From positions 742,477-806,476 of the forward strand of contig OY970382.1 of the NCBI GenBank assembly GCA_963719425.1: 64,000 bases of DNA, read 5' to 3'. The notes below the pieces were generated by a model that did not search any database, was not told where the DNA came from, and was given only the letters and a program-made list of their open reading frames with translations. Source of the DNA: an uncultured bacterium. GTDB taxonomy: Bacteria; Patescibacteriota; Minisyncoccia; UBA6257; 2-01-FULL-56-20. Shown here one piece after another: positions 11,611-21,377 of this stretch; position 1 is the stretch's first letter; each line of letters opens with the position of its first letter. Both the position numbers and the translations under genes were made by a program.

Positions 11611-11890
11611 TGCTTTAATTATAACAAATCAGAAACGGTTCGATTCCACTCGTCTCTTAGATATTTTGGGTCAAAAAAAGAGAAAACGACGCTCTGCAAG
11701 CGCTGATTCTGCTGGAGTCCCGATATCAAATAACCGTGGACGCAACGGCACTGCCACCGAACTATTTGATGCTATAGCCGAGAACGCCGAAGCAATGCAG
11801 ACATGGAACGCATTCGCGCAAGCGTTCATGGCCCAGGAACGCAAAGAGGACGCTCTATCTGTAACGCTTTGAGGTTGGTATAATCAGGGC

Positions 11891-12193
11891 ATGATCAAGC
11901 GTAAAGACAACCTCACGGACATCGTTGAAGACCTCCAAAAGGATCGGGATAAAAAGCCGGAACCGAATCAGAAGCCCGAAAAGCCCGGCAAAAACGAATG
12001 GCAAGTCACGGATAACGAAGGAAACATCGTCACTTTGGGCCAAAAACCCGGGAGCCGCACAGCGTCATCTAATAAGGCAAATCCCGTTGAACTATCTCAA
12101 GACGTGATGGAGGCTATCAAGCAGGCGGTACAAACGGGCATCAAAGAAGCGTTTGAGAAGTGGGAGGAAAAACGGCGACGCGAAAAATCGTAA
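11891..12193 (+). CDS. Hypothetical protein (Lys/Glu-rich, 100 aa)
   Basis: ORF only. Lower-GC, phage-like context. Confidence 0.4.
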   Translation: MIKRKDNLTDIVEDLQKDRDKKPEPNQKPEKPGKNEWQVTDNEGNIVTLGQKPGSRTASSNKANPVELSQDVMEAIKQAVQTGIKEAFEKWEEKRRREKS

Positions 12194-14181: not shown

Positions 14182-14210
14182 TTGACACCAGAACTCTATT
14201 TTGGTAGAAT
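14182..14210 (+). promoter_or_regulatory. Near-consensus sigma70 promoter upstream of the DGR target gene
   Basis: TTGACA (14182..14187), 17-nt spacer, TGgTAGAAT extended -10 (14202..14210). Confidence 0.55.
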
Positions 14211-14340
14211 ATAGGGGTTCTTTAACAAGATAAAAATCAAGGTTTCAAACATACGCATGAGGCGAGTATTCAGCGGGCCGCGCAAGCCCTTTGAACACTC
14301 GTCTCATAACCTGAGCGGGTAGAAAAGGAGGATGATAACG

Positions 14341-15243
14341 ATGCCTACATCGATTACATCCAACATCACCGAAGGACAGAAGGAACTCTACGAGCGCGTC
14401 GTACGCGACGCTGCGAAACACGGCACCGCGCTTGCGCTCGAGAAGACCGGCGCAGACCAGGTTGGCTGGCAGCGCGTCATCGAAAACGGCGACGATCTCC
14501 GCGAAGCGATCGCGGCAACCATCGTGGCCAAAACCCTGGAGCTTTCAATCTCTAACCAGTTCGCCGACGAGGAAGTGGAGTCGAGCTACGGCTACCTGTC
14601 GGGCTATCGGAAGCCCAAGGGCGTCACCGAGCAGACGAACATCCTGCGTCAGCTTTTCCCCGGCGTCGGTTTCGCCGACGAGAAGATCGCGGAACAGCCG
14701 CTCCCGCCGAACACCGAAGGATGGTTCGCCATCCCGAAGTGGGAAACGATCGCCCCGACCTACGGCGAAGCGGTGCAGAAGGTGTTCGACATGATCAAGA
14801 AGACCCGAGGCGGCAAGTTCTACAACTGGCGCGAGGGCCAGCTTGGTCCGCAGTACCTTCGGCAATCCGCGAAGTCGGTCAAGGCGTTCCAGAAACTCGG
14901 CACCGAGCAGAAGGATCACGACATCCTCGTCGTTGCGGCGCAGTTCGGTCTACGTCACCGGGGCCGTTCGGTTCGCAGGGCGCGGGAAGTCATGAACGCA
15001 TCCGAGTTCGGTCTCGGTGCGTTCGCCATCGGGATCATGCTACTCACGCATCCCGAGCGTCTCAGGCACTATGACGATCTCTGGATCGACTGTGCCGGGG
15101 ACGAGTTCAGCTACGATGGCGATGGCCGGTTCGACAGCGCGCCGTTCTTCTACTTCGACGGCGTCGGGGTGAAGTTCGACGCGAGCGACGTTGCCTCTGC
15201 GCTCGCCCACTATGGCTCGGCGTCGGCTTCCGTTCCGCAGTAG
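14341..15243 (+). CDS. DGR target (variable) protein with a C-terminal variable repeat
   Basis: Strong SD AAGGAGG at 14325..14331. The last ~43 codons form the VR. No obvious signal peptide. Confidence 0.8.
   Translation: MPTSITSNITEGQKELYERVVRDAAKHGTALALEKTGADQVGWQRVIENGDDLREAIAATIVAKTLELSISNQFADEEVESSYGYLSGYRKPKGVTEQTNILRQLFPGVGFADEKIAEQPLPPNTEGWFAIPKWETIAPTYGEAVQKVFDMIKKTRGGKFYNWREGQLGPQYLRQSAKSVKAFQKLGTEQKDHDILVVAAQFGLRHRGRSVRRAREVMNASEFGLGAFAIGIMLLTHPERLRHYDDLWIDCAGDEFSYDGDGRFDSAPFFYFDGVGVKFDASDVASALAHYGSASASVPQ
15111..15240 (+). other. DGR variable repeat (VR)
   Basis: 130 bp, 111/130 identical to TR. All 19 mismatches correspond to A in TR. Confidence 0.85.
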
Positions 15244-15326
15244 ATTGAACCTTGATTGCTCGAGTGCTTGGGTCTTTTGATCCTCTTATCTTCTTGATCC
15301 CTTGCATTCGCGCGATTTTTTCCACA

Positions 15327-15357
15327 GGGGCTTCCGCACCATCATCGCGGCAGCCCC
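15327..15357 (+). promoter_or_regulatory. Hairpin downstream of VR (candidate DGR homing-associated stem-loop)
   Basis: ggggcttccgc / gcggcagcccc is an 11-bp stem with one mismatch and a 9-nt loop, ~85 bp 3' of VR. Confidence 0.45.
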
Positions 15358-15670
15358 TTTCTCTTTTCAGCTTCACAAAAAACATTTCCATTTATATACT
15401 TACAAGCGAGCATAGGCTAATGCACGGCCGTCCACGGATTGCCGTCGCCGAACTCTCTCTTCAAAAAAGAGATCCACAGCCAGAGTCCGGACGGTCACGG
15501 CTTTCCGGAGCGTGCTGCCTTGAGGAGATTACTGCTTGCCCCTGCCTTGTGCGGGTGTCCCGCGAGCGCGGGGCTGCTGCCGAATAAAATACAGGAATGA
15601 GAGGATATAGTTCCGCTGCCAGTGGGAAGTAACCCTCGAGATCCGGTGACGCGGACGGGCGGGAGCAATA

Positions 15671-15800
15671 CTACGATGGCGATGGCCGGTTCGACAACGC
15701 GCCGTACTTCAACTTCAACGACGACAAGGTGAAGTTCGACACGAACGACGTTGACAATGCGAACGACAACTATGGCTCGGCGTCGGCATCCGTTCCGAAG
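15671..15800 (+). repeat. DGR template repeat (TR)
   Basis: Non-coding copy of VR, same orientation. Adenine-rich, with AAC codons in the VR frame. Confidence 0.85.
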
Positions 15801-15814
15801 TTCCTCCTCAAGTG

Positions 15815-15840
15815 AAATGCCCCCTTCAGCGGGGGCATTT
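15815..15840 (+). promoter_or_regulatory. Perfect 10-bp hairpin immediately 3' of TR
   Basis: aaatgccccc-ttcagc-gggggcattt, placed between the TR end and the avd stop. Confidence 0.4.
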
Positions 15841-15842
15841 CT

Positions 15843-16190
15843 TTACTGTTTCACTGATCGTATCCACCCGCCGAGCATCCTGCCGATCTCGTCGATTGGA
15901 GCTTGGAGCGCGAGATACTTCTTTCCGTCGATGCCTCTTGTCTCGTGCATGAGACGGATGAAAACGCGAAGGAAGTTGAGTTTCACGCTCGCCCTCTCAA
16001 GCACCGGCAGCTTCTCGCTCTTGGACATCTGGCTGGCAGCCATGATGCCCTCAAGCACGTCGAGGATCATCGCGTCGCACCGTTGCCAGATGGTATAGCG
16101 GTCCTGCTTCGACATCGTGTTGCGATAGCTGTAAAACAGCTTGTAGAGATCGCAGGTCTTCTTGAAGATGGGAACATCAAAATCATCCAT
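15843..16190 (-). CDS. avd: Avd-like accessory variability determinant (four-helix-bundle / 23S rRNA IVS protein family)
   Basis: 115 aa. The C-terminal ...PIDEIGRMLGGWIRSVKQ resembles the Bordetella phage Avd C-terminus (EVGRILGSWIARVNRKGQ). Confidence 0.8.
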   Translation of the reverse strand: MDDFDVPIFKKTCDLYKLFYSYRNTMSKQDRYTIWQRCDAMILDVLEGIMAASQMSKSEKLPVLERASVKLNFLRVFIRLMHETRGIDGKKYLALQAPIDEIGRMLGGWIRSVKQ

Positions 16191-16198
16191 TAGCTTTT

Positions 16199-17239
16199 AT
16201 GAAGGTTTATAAAAACGCATTCGACCGTATTGCGTCTCTCGAAAATCTCTTTGCTGCGTGGAACGCCTTCAAGGGAAACAAGCGGAACAAGGATGACGTG
16301 CAGCAGTTTGAGCGGCACCTTGAGCAAAACATTTTCCAGCTGCATCGTGATCTCACGAGTGGGTCGTACCGGCACGGCCCGTATTACGGTTTCTACATTC
16401 ACGACCCCAAGCAGAGGCACATCCACAAAGCGTCCGTAAGAGACAGGGTTTTGCATCACGCGGTCGTATCGGTGATCAACCCAATGTTCGAGGAGGCCTT
16501 TATCCCATCCTCCTTCTCGTGCCGCGTTGGATTTGGCACGCACAAGGGCGTCGATGTCCTCGAAGAAATGGCACGGGCGGCGGCGGAGAACGGCACCGCA
16601 CCATGCTTCATTTTGAAATGCGATGTTCGGAAGTTCTTTGACAGCGTTGACCATGACGTCCTGCTCGGCATTTTGGGAAAGCGCATCAAGGACGATGCCA
16701 CGATAAATCTCATCACAGAAATCGTCGAGAGCTTCTCATCTTCCCGATCAAGCCTATTTGATCGCAAAGGGCTGCCGATCGGCAACCTCACGTCGCAGCT
16801 TTTCGCGAACACTTACATGAACGAGTTCGACCAGTTCATAAAACACGACCTCAAGGTGAAGCAGTACGCCCGTTACACGGACGACTTCGCCATCGTCGCA
16901 TCCGATCGCGCGTACTTGGAGAACCTGATCGAGCCGATCTCCCGCTTCCTGAATGACCGGCTTGCGCTTGAGCTGCATCCGAAAAAAATATCTATCGGGA
17001 AGCTGCATAATGGCATCGACTTCCTCGGATACGTCATGTTCCCGAGACATCGGCTTGTCCGGGCCAAAACGCGCCGCCGGATGTTCGCGAAGTTCGCGGC
17101 GAAGATAGCGGCGGTCCGCAGCGGAAGCATTTCCGAGGACTCTCTTATCGCTTCGCTCCGGTCATATCTCGGCGTCTTGTCGCACGCGGATGCGCATCGA
17201 TTGTCGGAGGACCTGAAGAACGGACTATGGTTCAACTAA
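16199..17239 (+). CDS. DGR reverse transcriptase
   Basis: 346 aa. LPIGNLTSQLFAN is the DGR-specific motif-4 signature, and YTDDF is the catalytic box. Confidence 0.9.
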   Translation: MKVYKNAFDRIASLENLFAAWNAFKGNKRNKDDVQQFERHLEQNIFQLHRDLTSGSYRHGPYYGFYIHDPKQRHIHKASVRDRVLHHAVVSVINPMFEEAFIPSSFSCRVGFGTHKGVDVLEEMARAAAENGTAPCFILKCDVRKFFDSVDHDVLLGILGKRIKDDATINLITEIVESFSSSRSSLFDRKGLPIGNLTSQLFANTYMNEFDQFIKHDLKVKQYARYTDDFAIVASDRAYLENLIEPISRFLNDRLALELHPKKISIGKLHNGIDFLGYVMFPRHRLVRAKTRRRMFAKFAAKIAAVRSGSISEDSLIASLRSYLGVLSHADAHRLSEDLKNGLWFN

Positions 17240-17248
17240 TGCCCGGCC

Positions 17249-17947
17249 TCAATACCACTTCGCCACGCCTCCGTGATGCGAACACGCGCCGCTGTGGGTT
17301 TTGCTGTAGCTGTATGATCCGTCGCGGCAGAGCGCGGTAGCACCGGTAGGCACGCCTGCATTGGTCTTGATCGTCGGAGTAACCGTCGTTGTCTTGGGTT
17401 TCGGAACCGCCTTCGCACCCGCCGCCATCATCGCGGAATAGTATTTGAGCCAGTTGCTTGAAATCTCCGCTTGGGCATCGCTCAAAGACATCTTTCCGCT
17501 GCATACCTGTGTGTGCAGATAGTTCTCGAACTTATCCTTGATCAAAGAACCGTTTGCAATCAACGAGGACTCCGGCCAGAGGTTTGCGATGGCGTTGCTG
17601 CCGCCAAGTTCCAAGCTGATAAGATGATCCACCTCGTAGTTGGCGTGGAGCTTGTATGCGATGCCGTATTCGGCGAACACCTGCTTACTCTCCGAAAGCG
17701 GGACGTTACGGACGGTCTTCGTGTAACCCACGGTGCACACCGTTGCAGTGTTGGTCGTGAGCACCGCCCCAGGCGTGCAGCCGGAGTCCGGCAACACTTG
17801 GTTCCCGACGCACTGCGACGTTTTCGTCTGCACGCCATAGGCGGCGAGTGAAGGCAACGCGCTCGCAGCGAGCATGAGTGCGGCGAGGGCGAAAACTGAC
17901 GTTTTCATGCTCATGAGGGTCATTGAATGTTGACCAACGTGTTGCAC
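17249..17947 (-). CDS. Secreted protein with HNH-like nuclease motif and C-terminal DUF3761-like Cys motif
   Basis: Signal peptide MKTSVFALAALMLAASALPSLAA. EVDHLISLELGGSN is HNH-like. C-terminal CRDGSYSYSKTHSGACSHHGGVAKW. The true start may be at 17908. Confidence 0.55.
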   Translation of the reverse strand: MQHVGQHSMTLMSMKTSVFALAALMLAASALPSLAAYGVQTKTSQCVGNQVLPDSGCTPGAVLTTNTATVCTVGYTKTVRNVPLSESKQVFAEYGIAYKLHANYEVDHLISLELGGSNAIANLWPESSLIANGSLIKDKFENYLHTQVCSGKMSLSDAQAEISSNWLKYYSAMMAAGAKAVPKPKTTTVTPTIKTNAGVPTGATALCRDGSYSYSKTHSGACSHHGGVAKWY

Positions 17948-19119
17948 GCGTCGTTGCCAGTCCCGCCCTCAATGATGCCCTGCTGCTTCAGGAAATCGCA
18001 GAGCGTGGACTGGTCAAATCCCGACCAGTTGATCTTCTGGTAGGTGTCCTTGTCCATTCCGTAGATCAGCACGGGAGTGTTGTTGTGCTGATTCCCGTAC
18101 GCGTCCGTTGTCTGGCCATCATATTCGACAAGAACATCGTAAGCATTATTGCCGGACGAGTATACGGTTTGGAATAGCTGAGCCGAGAGCTTGTTGGTCA
18201 CGTCGAGCAACGCGCTCTTGTCCAAGAAGTTCCCGACGTTCACGAAGACGGTGATCCCGGTCGTTCCCGCTGGCCGGTCCGGATCGGCAGCGTTTATTCG
18301 CAGATCCCCATAGTCCGCCTGAATGCCGCCGCCGAGCTTGGATATGTTGCCTTGAACGTTGTGCTTCAGCGCCTGTTGCGTTTGAAGAACCTGCTGCGCC
18401 CCCTGAAAGGTTTGGTCCGCAAGCGTTTGCTGTTCCTGCTTTATCGCAGCGGCTTGTGAGGTGGTGATCGCCGGAGATGCCTTGATCAAATCCAGCGCTT
18501 GGCTCTCGTCGCTGTTGCCCTGCTCAATGGAAGTGAATGCCGCGTTCGCCGCATCGGGATCAAGGAAGGAGAAACCGCCCTTCGGCACGGCGACATTGAT
18601 CGCCGCGACCAAGGCGTTGATGCCGCTTATCTGACTTGAAACTGCCTGATTGAGCAAGCTGTCTGCCTGCGACAAGTCGGAGGGGGCTTGGCCGTTCAGC
18701 GATTGGATGTTTTTCTGGGCCTGCGAGAAGTCGGCCTGCGCTTCGGTCTCGCTCGCGGTTACGAGGTCTTCAAGGTATTGTCCGCCGTAGATCGCCAGCG
18801 TGGGATCGCGCATGTCCTTCTGCGCTTTCTGGATGGCGGGTATCACGTTCGTCTGAACGGAGTTTATGTAATCCGCATCCGACAACTTGGGGCCGGAGTT
18901 GGTTGCGTTGGTAGTTTGCGCGGGGTTTGAAGCGACCGGGGTACCAGCTGGCGCGGTCGGACTGGTGATGCCGACGAGGACAAAGAACACGACTATCGCA
19001 CCGCCGAAGATCATGCCTACGCGTTTGCGCGAAGGCATTTTGATCCAAGATGGCTTTATGAGGCCAACGATAAGGCCAAGGAAAGAAACGAGGAGAAGAA
19101 CAATAAAGAAATCGTTCAT
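17920..19119 (-). CDS. Hypothetical membrane-anchored Gln/Ala/Ser-rich protein
   Basis: The likely start is MNDFFIVLLLVSFLGLIVGLI (ATG at 19119). The ORF-track extension to 19218 is probably readthrough. Confidence 0.5.
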   Translation of the reverse strand: MNDFFIVLLLVSFLGLIVGLIKPSWIKMPSRKRVGMIFGGAIVVFFVLVGITSPTAPAGTPVASNPAQTTNATNSGPKLSDADYINSVQTNVIPAIQKAQKDMRDPTLAIYGGQYLEDLVTASETEAQADFSQAQKNIQSLNGQAPSDLSQADSLLNQAVSSQISGINALVAAINVAVPKGGFSFLDPDAANAAFTSIEQGNSDESQALDLIKASPAITTSQAAAIKQEQQTLADQTFQGAQQVLQTQQALKHNVQGNISKLGGGIQADYGDLRINAADPDRPAGTTGITVFVNVGNFLDKSALLDVTNKLSAQLFQTVYSSGNNAYDVLVEYDGQTTDAYGNQHNNTPVLIYGMDKDTYQKINWSGFDQSTLCDFLKQQGIIEGGTGNDACNTLVNIQ

Positions 19120-19439
19120 GGTTGTGTGGTTGGTTGAAAAAACAAACGCCCCTCGCGCGGAGGAGCTTTCATCGACCAAAAAGCCCACCACGTGGGTGAG
19201 GGCTTTCGCCCTCCACACCGGTTTCCCGATGTGGCTGATCAGAGCAATCCCACATGATGGGGTTTTTAGCTCTGATCAGACTTCTTGTGCCATGCCGGGC
19301 ATTGCTGTCACGGTTTAGGCTACTGATTAAGTTGTGATTAGATATTACAATACTCCGGAGCATTTGCGAAGCATCGCCGATTTTGAAGCTACAGGAGCCC
19401 CCCTCAACTCTTCGAGGATAATCCGGTATAGTTCAGAAT

Positions 19440-21095
19440 ATGGCAACGCCAACAAATCCCGAGGAACTGCTTGAGGCACTTCGCCCATTGCAGATTAATG
19501 AAGACGAGGATGAGGAAAAGCGGCGAAAATGGCGTTACGTGATATACGCGAGAAAATCTACCGACGACAAGGACAAGCAAGTCCGTTCGCTCCCAGATCA
19601 GGTGCACGATTGTCAGGAGTTCGCGGCGGAACACAATCTCCATGTTGGTCTCAAGGACATCATCCAAGAAGCCGAATCGGCGAAAGAACCCGACATCCGG
19701 CCGAAGTTCCGTGCGATGATCGAAGATGTAAAGCGCGGGAAGTATGACGGCATCATCGCGTGGCATCCCGACCGGCTCGCGCGCAACATGAAAGACGCTG
19801 GTGAAATCATTGACCTCATCGACAAGCATATTATAAAAGACCTCCAGTTCAAGAGTTTCACGTTCACGAATGATCCAAGCGGCAAGATGCTACTCGGCAT
19901 CACCTTTGTTCTCGCAAAACAGTATTCCGAACAACTCGGCGTGAGCATCTCGCGCGGCAACCGACGGAGCATCGAGGAGGGGAAATATGTTGGCCGCACA
20001 AAGCACGGCTATTACAAAGACTCCGACCAATATCTCCGACCGGATGGTCAGAACTTCATCCTGATCAAAAACGCATTCCGGATGCGCATTGGGGGCTCGA
20101 CCTACGAACAAATCGCTGATTACCTCAACGCAAATGGGTATCAGCATGCACGGCGCGACGGCACTCACGTTCTGTTCAAAATGAATCTCAAGCGGGTTGA
20201 GAACTTCATGCGAGACACCGTCTATAGCGGAGTCATTGTGTACGGCAAGAAAGGCGGGGCCGTGAACCTCACAAAAATATACGACTTTCAACCAGCGATC
20301 AGCGTGCCGGATTTCATGAAAATCTATCACCTCGACAAAAAGGGATTCATGCGTCTTGCGAGAAAAAATCGACGCCAAGAAGATATAAAAGCAAGCCTCC
20401 TGCGAGGCATAGTGATTTGCGCGGCATGCGATGAGGTAATGTCGGCTGGCATCACACCAAAGCAAAACAAGGGAAGAGTCACACGATATTTTTACTACCG
20501 CTGCGACAATGAGGATTGTTCACGACACGACAAGTCGGTGCGGGCAAAGGTAATCTTGGATTACGCGAAGGAGTTCCTTGAAAAGAAACCATTCTCCTCG
20601 AGAAAGGCCTACAATCACTATGCCGAAGAAATGCCGCGGGTGGCGGCAGAGCGCGAGCGCGAAACGCGACTTCTTCTCGCAGGACAGAAAAATAGGAAGC
20701 TCCACCTCGAGAACAAGTTGGCCAAGCTGGAAGAGGGCCTCATGTACGAGGAAGACGAGGGTATAAAGGCTCTCTATCGCCGGGACAAGCCGACAGTGGA
20801 GGGCGATGTTAGAGGGGTTGATGCAGAAATCGACAGGCTTGAGGGCAAACTGAAGGCCGGAAAGACGGCCATACTCACATACACGGAGTTTCTCGAACTA
20901 ATGGAGAAAATGGGGGAAATGCTGACCTCCAAGACACCCATGAAGGATTTGGACGCGATCATCAGAAAAGTGTTCTCGAACTTTACCGTAAGCGCAAAAA
21001 AGGTAGAGAAATGGAGCCTTGCCGCGCCATTTGATGCGCTTTACGACCCCAAAATGACGAATGGTGGAGACGGGCGGAATCGAACCGCCGTGTAA
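19440..21095 (+). CDS. Large serine recombinase (phage-type serine integrase)
   Basis: 551 aa. YARKSTDDKDKQVRSLPDQ resolvase catalytic motif, recombinase domain, Cys zinc ribbon (CAACDEV...YYRCDNEDC), C-terminal coiled coil. Confidence 0.85.
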   Translation: MATPTNPEELLEALRPLQINEDEDEEKRRKWRYVIYARKSTDDKDKQVRSLPDQVHDCQEFAAEHNLHVGLKDIIQEAESAKEPDIRPKFRAMIEDVKRGKYDGIIAWHPDRLARNMKDAGEIIDLIDKHIIKDLQFKSFTFTNDPSGKMLLGITFVLAKQYSEQLGVSISRGNRRSIEEGKYVGRTKHGYYKDSDQYLRPDGQNFILIKNAFRMRIGGSTYEQIADYLNANGYQHARRDGTHVLFKMNLKRVENFMRDTVYSGVIVYGKKGGAVNLTKIYDFQPAISVPDFMKIYHLDKKGFMRLARKNRRQEDIKASLLRGIVICAACDEVMSAGITPKQNKGRVTRYFYYRCDNEDCSRHDKSVRAKVILDYAKEFLEKKPFSSRKAYNHYAEEMPRVAAERERETRLLLAGQKNRKLHLENKLAKLEEGLMYEEDEGIKALYRRDKPTVEGDVRGVDAEIDRLEGKLKAGKTAILTYTEFLELMEKMGEMLTSKTPMKDLDAIIRKVFSNFTVSAKKVEKWSLAAPFDALYDPKMTNGGDGRNRTAV

Positions 21096-21377
21096 AGGTA
21101 ATGCGCGTGGGCCGTCTACGGGCGTGTCTAGTGGAACACTAGCAACGCGATCCTAGTTTTCGCGCGCGGTATAGGATCATCCGCCGCGGCTAGTCCCCTT
21201 ATATAAGACCGGCTGTGAGCCCAAGGAACCCGGACTCGCCGATCCCGGCATTACGCGTAAGCGAACGCCGGAGCTGTAACTCTATTAGAGTTGGCAGTTA
21301 TGTTTTGTGCGGCAGTTACGTCGTCGCCCTCGGCCCGCAAACCCACTGCTTGCCCTTATCAAAGCCAGTGCGTCCCC
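21062..21377 (-). ncRNA. ssrA: Probable tmRNA (ssrA)
   Basis: 3' end GGCGG-UUCGAUU-CCGCC CGUCUCC A CCA (T-arm, acceptor, CCA). 5' GGGGACG pairs with it 316 nt upstream. CUGGCUUUGAUAAGGG resembles the conserved tmRNA 5' motif. Internal tag ORF GCC AAC ... = ANSNRVTAPAFAYA then UAA. Confidence 0.55.

Follow-up and report, generated by a model that had tools for sequence, protein, structure and literature searches.

Organization of the DGR locus

We analyzed a 64,000-nt stretch of DNA (hereafter, the window) from an uncultured bacterium of the Minisyncoccia (Patescibacteriota), which covers positions 742,477 to 806,476 of the forward strand of contig OY970382.1 (GenBank assembly GCA_963719425.1). 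Positions 14182 to 17239 of the window carry an element that is very likely an intact diversity-generating retroelement (DGR) of architecture B3, the arrangement typical of the candidate phyla radiation (CPR). It consists of a target gene ending in a variable repeat (VR), a template repeat (TR), an inverted avd gene, and a reverse transcriptase (RT) gene. A complete DGR with these components had been named in the original prediction, which was made from the sequence of the window without database searches; every one of the components is present and passes an independent test, and all of the gene coordinates given there were correct. The parts of the element on which the following analyses are based are listed below.

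14341..15243, plus strand: target (variable protein) gene, 300 aa, with an alternative ATG at 14332
15111..15241, plus strand: VR, comprising the last 43 codons of the target gene; the diversified sites are 15134-15209 plus 15228
15408..15670, plus strand: structured leader RNA of about 263 nt, directly 5' of the TR (alignments A2 and A3; RNAalifold)
15671..15801, plus strand: TR, an ungapped repeat of the VR at a 560-nt offset
15843..16190, minus strand: avd (accessory variability determinant), 115 aa, Pfam bAvd; convergent with the TR and divergent from the RT gene
16199..17239, plus strand: DGR reverse transcriptase, 346 aa, Pfam RVT_1, with LPIGNLTSQLFAN (motif 4) and the YTDD catalytic motif

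For comparison, one genome per species was scanned, which yielded 80 related loci with a homologue of the target gene. Two close relatives, L119 (ENA ERZ25039472) and L120 (JGI 3300050026), were found on contigs of other samples.

Adenine-specific divergence of the TR/VR pair

Ungapped comparison at the 560-nt offset confirmed that the VR and TR are in the same orientation and identical at 111 of 130 positions, as originally stated, and that the repeat extends one base past the earlier 130-nt bounds, to 15241 in the VR and 15801 in the TR. The restriction of mismatches to adenines also held: all 19 fall on one of the 34 adenines of the TR, where the VR has G in seven cases and T or C in six each. 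By chance, 19 of 19 mismatches would hit the 34 A sites among 130 with a probability of 6e-14 (hypergeometric). Eight of the changes affect the first codon position, ten the second, and one the third, and the translations of both repeats reported earlier were correct. When both strands of the 64-kb window were scanned with the TR adenines as wildcards, no second VR was found.

The GC-rich 3' end of the repeat had been proposed as the initiation of mutagenic homing (IMH) element. The A-free GC-rich block CTATGGCTCGGCGTCGG (15771-15787) is the same in TR and VR, as stated in the proposal, but mutagenesis extends beyond its 3' end, since the adjacent A15788 is altered in the VR. The last mismatch of the pair is TR A15798 (AAG) against VR C15238 (CAG, the terminal Gln). 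Of 33 related pairs, 32 have this A-to-C difference as well, so that it is not what stochastic mutagenesis would leave. Its recurrence across the aligned pairs fits either a fixed (IMH*/IMH-like) distinction between TR and VR or a strongly selected terminal Gln. The neighboring A15799 is never altered in the VRs compared (the window, L119, and L120). The candidate IMH/IMH* features observed at the locus are the shared GC-rich block, the single fixed A/C difference, and hairpins after the VR (15270-15283 and 15326-15358), neither of which directly abuts the repeat.

Reverse transcriptase and Avd

The DGR motif LPIGNLTSQ attributed to the RT is present, together with YTDD, and the two fit the [ILV]GxxxSQ + YxDD signature. 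In profile comparisons, the best PDB relative of the protein is the Bordetella phage DGR RT, bRT (8ub7; E 1.9e-47, residues 3-335 aligned), and PHROG 1423 is matched at E 4e-114. No extra domain was detected by Pfam in the 346-aa protein, and no group II intron RNA was matched by Rfam around the element. We considered whether the repeat could be a duplicated gene fragment that lies beside an unrelated RT (from a retron, a group II intron, or a defence system). In NCBIfam, the top match of the RT is indeed the group II intron family (TIGR04416), because this collection has no DGR-RT model; however, the score of 152.6 bits is half of the cut-off of 300, and the scores for retron St85 (55.9 bits, cut-off 235), Drt2-5, and AbiA are far under their cut-offs. 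The best group II intron RT in the PDB comparison reached E 5e-24, which is 23 orders of magnitude behind bRT. Based on these PDB matches and NCBIfam scores, the RT sides with DGR RTs and not with those of group II introns or retrons, which is the placement that had been predicted. Moreover, the A-only mismatches at the probability given above, the presence of Avd, and the occurrence of the same module with the same repeat in 36 loci all speak against an unrelated RT, which we regard as an exceedingly improbable explanation.

The 115-aa minus-strand gene, previously described as Avd-like, was recognized by Pfam bAvd (57.5 bits, cut-off 40) and by PHROG 3206, annotated as 'Avd protein of DGR' (E 1.6e-19). 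Its start codon and that of the RT gene are 8 nt apart (16188-16201), and the two genes abut or overlap in several related loci. Two results weigh against the element as a fully equipped DGR: the NCBIfam model DivGenRetAVD scored 79.8 bits, 0.2 below its cut-off of 80, and no sigma-70-like promoter site was detected for avd or the RT gene. Because of the latter, the promoters would lie inside each other's coding sequences, or the RT would be read through from the TR transcript.

Relationship to known DGRs

The TR-(avd)-RT order of the element is that of B3 of the CPR; as both this architecture and the host group have been published, the element is not a new system. Wu et al. 2018 (PMC5758913) define B3 as TR-(avd)-RT and assign 90% of their CPR set to it. 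The CPR/Patescibacteria B3 DGRs of that survey and DGR clade 2 of Roux et al. 2021 (PMC8144416) have the same gene order and orientations as the element. The host group is also the same, as all named homologues of the target come from Parcubacteria, Patescibacteria, and relatives. In addition, their targets likewise lack a recognizable domain, signal peptide, or membrane segment, and they share a C-terminal VR and TR adenines at codon positions 1 and 2. No fundamental difference was found between the element and these CPR DGRs; what is not stated in the portions of the surveys available is the C-type-lectin-like fold of this target family, the 263-nt leader, and the hairpin in the 5' untranslated region (UTR) of the target gene.

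The DGR of Bordetella phage BPP-1 (mtd-avd-TR-brt) is a more distant reference. The two RTs are homologous end to end, Avd and A-specific mutagenesis occur in both, and the VR lies at the C-terminus of a protein with a C-type-lectin (CLec) fold, which is a modelled fold in the case of the element. Unlike in BPP-1, avd is inverted here and separates the TR from the RT gene, and the host is a cellular CPR genome rather than a phage. A phage-borne lineage was also unsupported by the related sequences: a 16-mer of the leader had 38 hits in viral contigs, of which only two (L112 and L118) carry a DGR module, the rest being chance matches.

Evidence for recent diversification and repeated loss among related loci

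In every related locus that keeps these components, the TR (plus), avd (minus), and RT (plus) occur in the same order, and the module is located either downstream of the target gene, as in the window, or inverted upstream of it. Adenine restriction is a property of the whole family, with 671 of the 722 mismatches in 35 other TR/VR pairs at TR adenines, and the counts for L119 and L120 are 23/23 and 20/20, respectively. These two relatives are identical to the window at 97.7% of positions in the TR, 94.7% in the leader, about 91.5% in avd, about 83% in the target body, and about 82% in the RT; within the cassette, only the TR is better conserved than the leader in these comparisons. The VRs of the three loci vary at 26 of 32 shared TR A sites and at none of 95 shared non-A sites. 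Furthermore, at the four positions where the three TRs differ from each other, each VR has either the base found in its own TR or an A-type change. The VRs thus carry the private substitutions of their own TRs, and homing therefore appears to have continued since the lineages of the window, L119, and L120 split.

These data bear on the view that the DGR is a fossil, whose VR was diversified in the past and is now frozen next to an inactive cassette. Loss of the cassette is indeed common: among the 43 loci with full 5-kb flanks, it is complete in 17, partial in 6, and absent in 20, that is, lost in about half of the related species. Decaying examples are known as well, as L003, L007, and L013 have a TR without an RT and with avd partial or missing, and 9 of the 28 mismatches in L013 are non-A. 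Beside orphan targets with no RT, avd, or TR nearby, truncated 5' leader pieces of 49-190 nt are found downstream (L008, L017, L038, L046, and L076). Such remnants and partial cassettes are apparent footprints of repeated DGR loss. In the window, however, all open reading frames are intact, the catalytic motifs are present, and not a single non-A mismatch separates TR from VR; the leader and TR are more constrained than the coding genes; and the private substitutions tracked by the VRs of close relatives date homing to after their split. A fossil is accordingly improbable. The comparisons argue for recent diversification of the VR, with a window pair that looks current rather than fossil, and the element is a complete and, by this comparative proxy, probably active DGR.

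A conserved structured RNA upstream of the TR

In the 320 nt before the TR, comparison of 33 loci showed strong conservation, which begins a few bases past a TATAAT-like box; in the related loci, such a box lies equally far upstream of the conserved GAG at the leader's start. The features of this region and of the 3' flank of the TR are given below (all on the plus strand).

15372..15400: promoter-like site of the DGR RNA, TTCACA-17-TATACT (consensus match)
15415-15417/15447-15449, 15422-15432/15437-15446, 15478-15480/15514-15516, and 15486-15495/15500-15509: leader helices (RNAalifold)
15536-15547/15657-15668 (helix H6), 15551-15560/15571-15580, and 15594-15603/15635-15644: further leader helices (RNAalifold)
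15520-15538: near-invariant leader block UUGAGGAGA(U)UACUGCUUG, from the leader alignments
15520-15533 (UUGAGGAGAUUACU) with 15799-15811: long-range duplex H5, involving the last 3 nt of the TR and 10 nt of the 3' spacer
15814..15841: 11-bp stem-loop and U-rich run 3' of the TR (helix 9), terminator-like, with the avd stop codon immediately after

The fold was predicted with RNAalifold from 26 non-redundant sequences. For the 67 base pairs tested, 93.6% of cells were paired, compared with 41-49% when the partner was slid by 1-3 columns. Compensatory changes on both sides were present in 54 of the 67 pairs, compared with 20-30 when slid, and none of 500 shuffles equalled any of the observed pairing measures. 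Conservation of the leader as a protein-coding region was ruled out because of the frequent 1-2-nt indels and the compensatory pair changes. A search with an nhmmer profile detected the leader in all 36 TR-bearing loci and never found it complete without a TR. No match at E<=1 was obtained for the leader in Rfam 15, or for the Rfam RT-motif between positions 12000 and 22000. Our literature searches on an upstream leader in CPR DGRs found no description of one, although an earlier description may exist. Taken as a conserved structured RNA, the leader is strongly supported by these covariation data.

The stem-loop on the other side of the TR (15814-15841) has compensatory changes across loci in 11 of its 11 pairs. 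It would end the DGR RNA, and its position is equivalent to that of the Avd-binding stem-loop described just 3' of the TR by Handa et al. (bioRxiv 10.1101/2023.10.23.563531) in other DGRs. By analogy, it may also bind Avd.

Predicted pairing of the leader with both flanks of the TR

Two predicted duplexes connect the leader to the ends of the TR. Helix H6 has 12 bp, nine of them with compensatory changes, and closes 2 nt before the TR. In H5, the leader pairs with the 3' end of the TR and the adjoining spacer; on the leader strand, a gap of just two bases lies between H5 and H6. The core of H5 (15524-15527/15804-15807) was predicted by RNAalifold unprompted and was also present in the single-sequence minimum free energy and centroid structures. 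Because the register of H5 shifts between lineages, its support in fixed alignment columns is modest, and the fixed-column test was replaced by a comparison of duplex energies between cognate and non-cognate partners. Cognate leader/spacer duplexes had a mean of -12.55 kcal/mol, as against -10.27 kcal/mol for non-cognate ones (permutation p<1e-4) and -6.25 kcal/mol for shuffled spacers.

BPP-1 shares this layout, in which two adjacent duplexes of RNA flank the TR and a stem-loop follows closely on its 3' side. The DGR RNA of that phage comprises 20 nt of upstream sequence, the TR, and a 140-nt Spacer, which supplies the priming 2'-OH (Handa et al.). Unlike it, the element has no downstream Spacer, because only 41 nt lie between the end of the TR and the avd stop codon; the remainder of the TR-RT interval is taken up by the oppositely oriented avd. 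Instead, pairing with the two TR flanks falls to a strand located about 125-150 nt upstream of the TR, in a leader with its own promoter-like site. Covariation and geometry together suggest that the leader could be the functional counterpart of the Bordetella 'Spacer', sited upstream of the TR, a reading to which we give about even weight.

Several observations weigh against this equivalence. The covariation of H5 in fixed columns is only modest, as mentioned above, and the single-sequence folding z-score is unremarkable (-1.62). In addition, L011-type sequences retain only the UAC/GUA end of H5, and the priming nucleotide is not identifiable from sequence. The leader might stand outside the reverse-transcription machinery, as an ordinary regulatory leader or a stabilizing 5' structure, while priming would depend on other elements, for example the short 3' spacer and hairpin or read-through RNA antisense to avd. 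The modest H5 covariation fits this explanation too, as does the fact that the role of the leader is read from its position and pairing only. Moreover, Handa et al., whose DGR survey was confined to 40 nt on the upstream side of the TR and 100 nt on its downstream side, reported Avd-binding stem-loops and upstream/downstream duplexes within these limits in many DGRs, those of CPR included. On the other side, the leader accompanies the TR in 36/36 loci and is never intact without it, it is second only to the TR in conservation within the cassette, the two duplexes that flank the TR neighbor each other on a single strand and come within 2-3 nt of both TR ends, and the 41 nt before the avd stop codon are too little for a 140-nt Spacer. 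Weighing these points, we consider a purely regulatory or stabilizing leader to be rather unlikely.

Diversification could proceed as follows, with the Bordetella phage as the model for transcription, cDNA synthesis, and VR replacement. The DGR RNA would be a separate transcript that starts near 15408 and ends at the hairpin 15814-15841. The RT-Avd complex would bind it and reverse-transcribe the TR, misincorporating opposite adenines, and replacement of the VR by the cDNA would provide the 300-aa target with new ligand-binding surfaces at its C-terminus. If the leader does act as an upstream Spacer, its strand 15520-15547 would make two adjacent duplexes 2 nt apart, one with the TR 3' end and the following 10 nt, oriented like a primer:template, and the other with a 12-nt stretch that stops 2 nt short of the TR, placed like a stop duplex. 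Because the two TR-flanking duplexes are adjacent, the TR would be looped out between the initiation site and the roadblock. We tentatively propose, with slightly less assurance than for the Spacer equivalence itself, that CPR-type (B3) DGRs use a circularly permuted DGR RNA, in which the RT-Avd scaffold, primer strand, and stop duplex all come from the 263-nt upstream leader, the TR is a loop clamped by two leader duplexes, and the cDNA is cis-primed from the near-invariant GAGAUACUGC segment (15526-15535).

The noncoding RNA of retrons (msr-msd) is also a structured, template-bearing RNA transcribed upstream of the RT gene and in the same orientation, and both retrons and BPP-1 prime from a 2'-OH inside the RNA. 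Unlike in retrons, the RT of the element falls outside the retron clade by its St85 score (55.9 bits against 235), the template copies part of a protein-coding sequence and has its cognate VR at another site, and Avd is present.

The target gene and its protein family

The target gene is surrounded by its own set of predicted signals, all on the plus strand.

14182..14210: promoter-like site, TTGACA-17-TAGAAT, TG-extended (consensus match only, 11/12)
14256..14308: long hairpin in the 5' UTR (ATGAGRCGAG...CTCGYCTCAT), from RNAalifold on 32 loci (alignment A4)
15326..15358: likely terminator, a hairpin with T-rich run TTTCTCTTTTC (inverted repeat I2, 12-nt arms, 92% complementary)

TTGACA/TATAAT-like boxes were also found upstream of the target 5' UTR in related loci. 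The 5' UTR hairpin consists of 25 bp, 18 of which have compensatory changes across the 32 loci, and it is kept upstream of DGR-linked and DGR-less homologues alike; it had no match in Rfam. In many loci, a second small hairpin (CCGAGCGATTCGG) follows it. The hairpin at 15326-15358 was not called by a strict terminator scan.

The target itself had no match in Pfam, NCBIfam, PHROG, or PDB sequence-profile searches, and no signal peptide or membrane segment was recognizable in it. Its homologues number more than 2,576, and the named ones are hypothetical proteins from metagenome-assembled genomes of Parcubacteria, Patescibacteria, Sungbacteria, and Minisyncoccia. An alignment of 36 homologues revealed a strongly conserved body, followed by 40 C-terminal residues in which invariant scaffold sites (F..AP.F.F..G.V.F...YGSASGFVPQ) are interleaved with hypervariable ones. 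Some genomes have two tandem target paralogues, each about 40-50% identical to the query match of the other (L046, L048, L055, and L078), and some proteins of about 480 aa (P0040 and P0072) contain two fused copies of the conserved target body.

The original prediction had suggested that structure prediction of the C-terminus might reveal a C-type lectin or other VR-displaying fold. The C-terminal half indeed models as a C-type-lectin-like fold with the VR at its C-terminus, and a Foldseek comparison of the model with the PDB gave no significant match. We provisionally describe the target as an N-terminal helical region joined to a very divergent C-type-lectin-like fold, with the modelled VR forming the C-terminal face of this domain. 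Its closest known systems are the solved DGR variable proteins TvpA (2y3c), TaqVP (5vf4), and Mtd (1yu2) and the FGE-type C-type-lectin folds. Roux et al. predicted a C-type-lectin fold for unassigned CPR targets, and Wu et al. left the fold of the CPR VR classes UVR1-6 unassigned.

Genomic surroundings

The DGR lies in a 9.4-kb stretch between a tmRNA gene (21062-21377, minus strand) and an inverted copy of the tmRNA 3' end: positions 21066-21086 (minus) are matched at 19 of 21 positions by 11636-11656 (plus). These copies bracket the DGR plus several unannotated genes. A large serine recombinase gene (19440-21095, plus) overlaps the tmRNA 3' end by 34 nt. The bracketed segment could be integrated or invertible. 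The direct repeat of the tmRNA 3' end that is expected for an island at ssrA was not found, the inverted 19/21 copy being the only one, and the related DGR loci have no consistent linkage to tRNA or tmRNA genes.

Just after the RT gene, a minus-strand gene (17249-17947) encodes 232 aa, hydrophobic at the N-terminus and with a DUF3761 domain at the C-terminus (E 9.8e-15); this gene is not next to the DGR in L119 or L120. Further downstream, a LOOT RNA (Rfam RF03000; 86 bits, gathering score 46.4) was detected at 19198-19321 (minus), at the 5' end of a 432-aa open reading frame (17920-19218, minus), the N-terminal region of which has weak matches to PHROG families of unknown function.

Implications for CPR biology

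Taken alone, the element is one more intact DGR in a well-populated class and is unsurprising, yet it provides a clean reference case for the CPR lineage, as a perfect A-only TR/VR pair is accompanied by close relatives that were diversified independently from nearly the same template. An unannotated family of more than 2,500 target proteins can now provisionally be read as a divergent C-type-lectin display scaffold. The leader RNA offers a concrete and testable model of how reverse transcription might work with an inverted avd and no downstream Spacer; together with the TR, it forms a compact RNA of about 445 nt that may be suitable for reconstitution or for DGR-based mutagenesis tools. If the model is true, the leader would represent a so far undescribed family of RNAs and would define the DGR lineage that is most abundant in ultra-small bacteria. 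The many DGR-less homologues with leader remnants suggest, in turn, that the hypermutation module is gained and lost in these small genomes while the target gene is retained.

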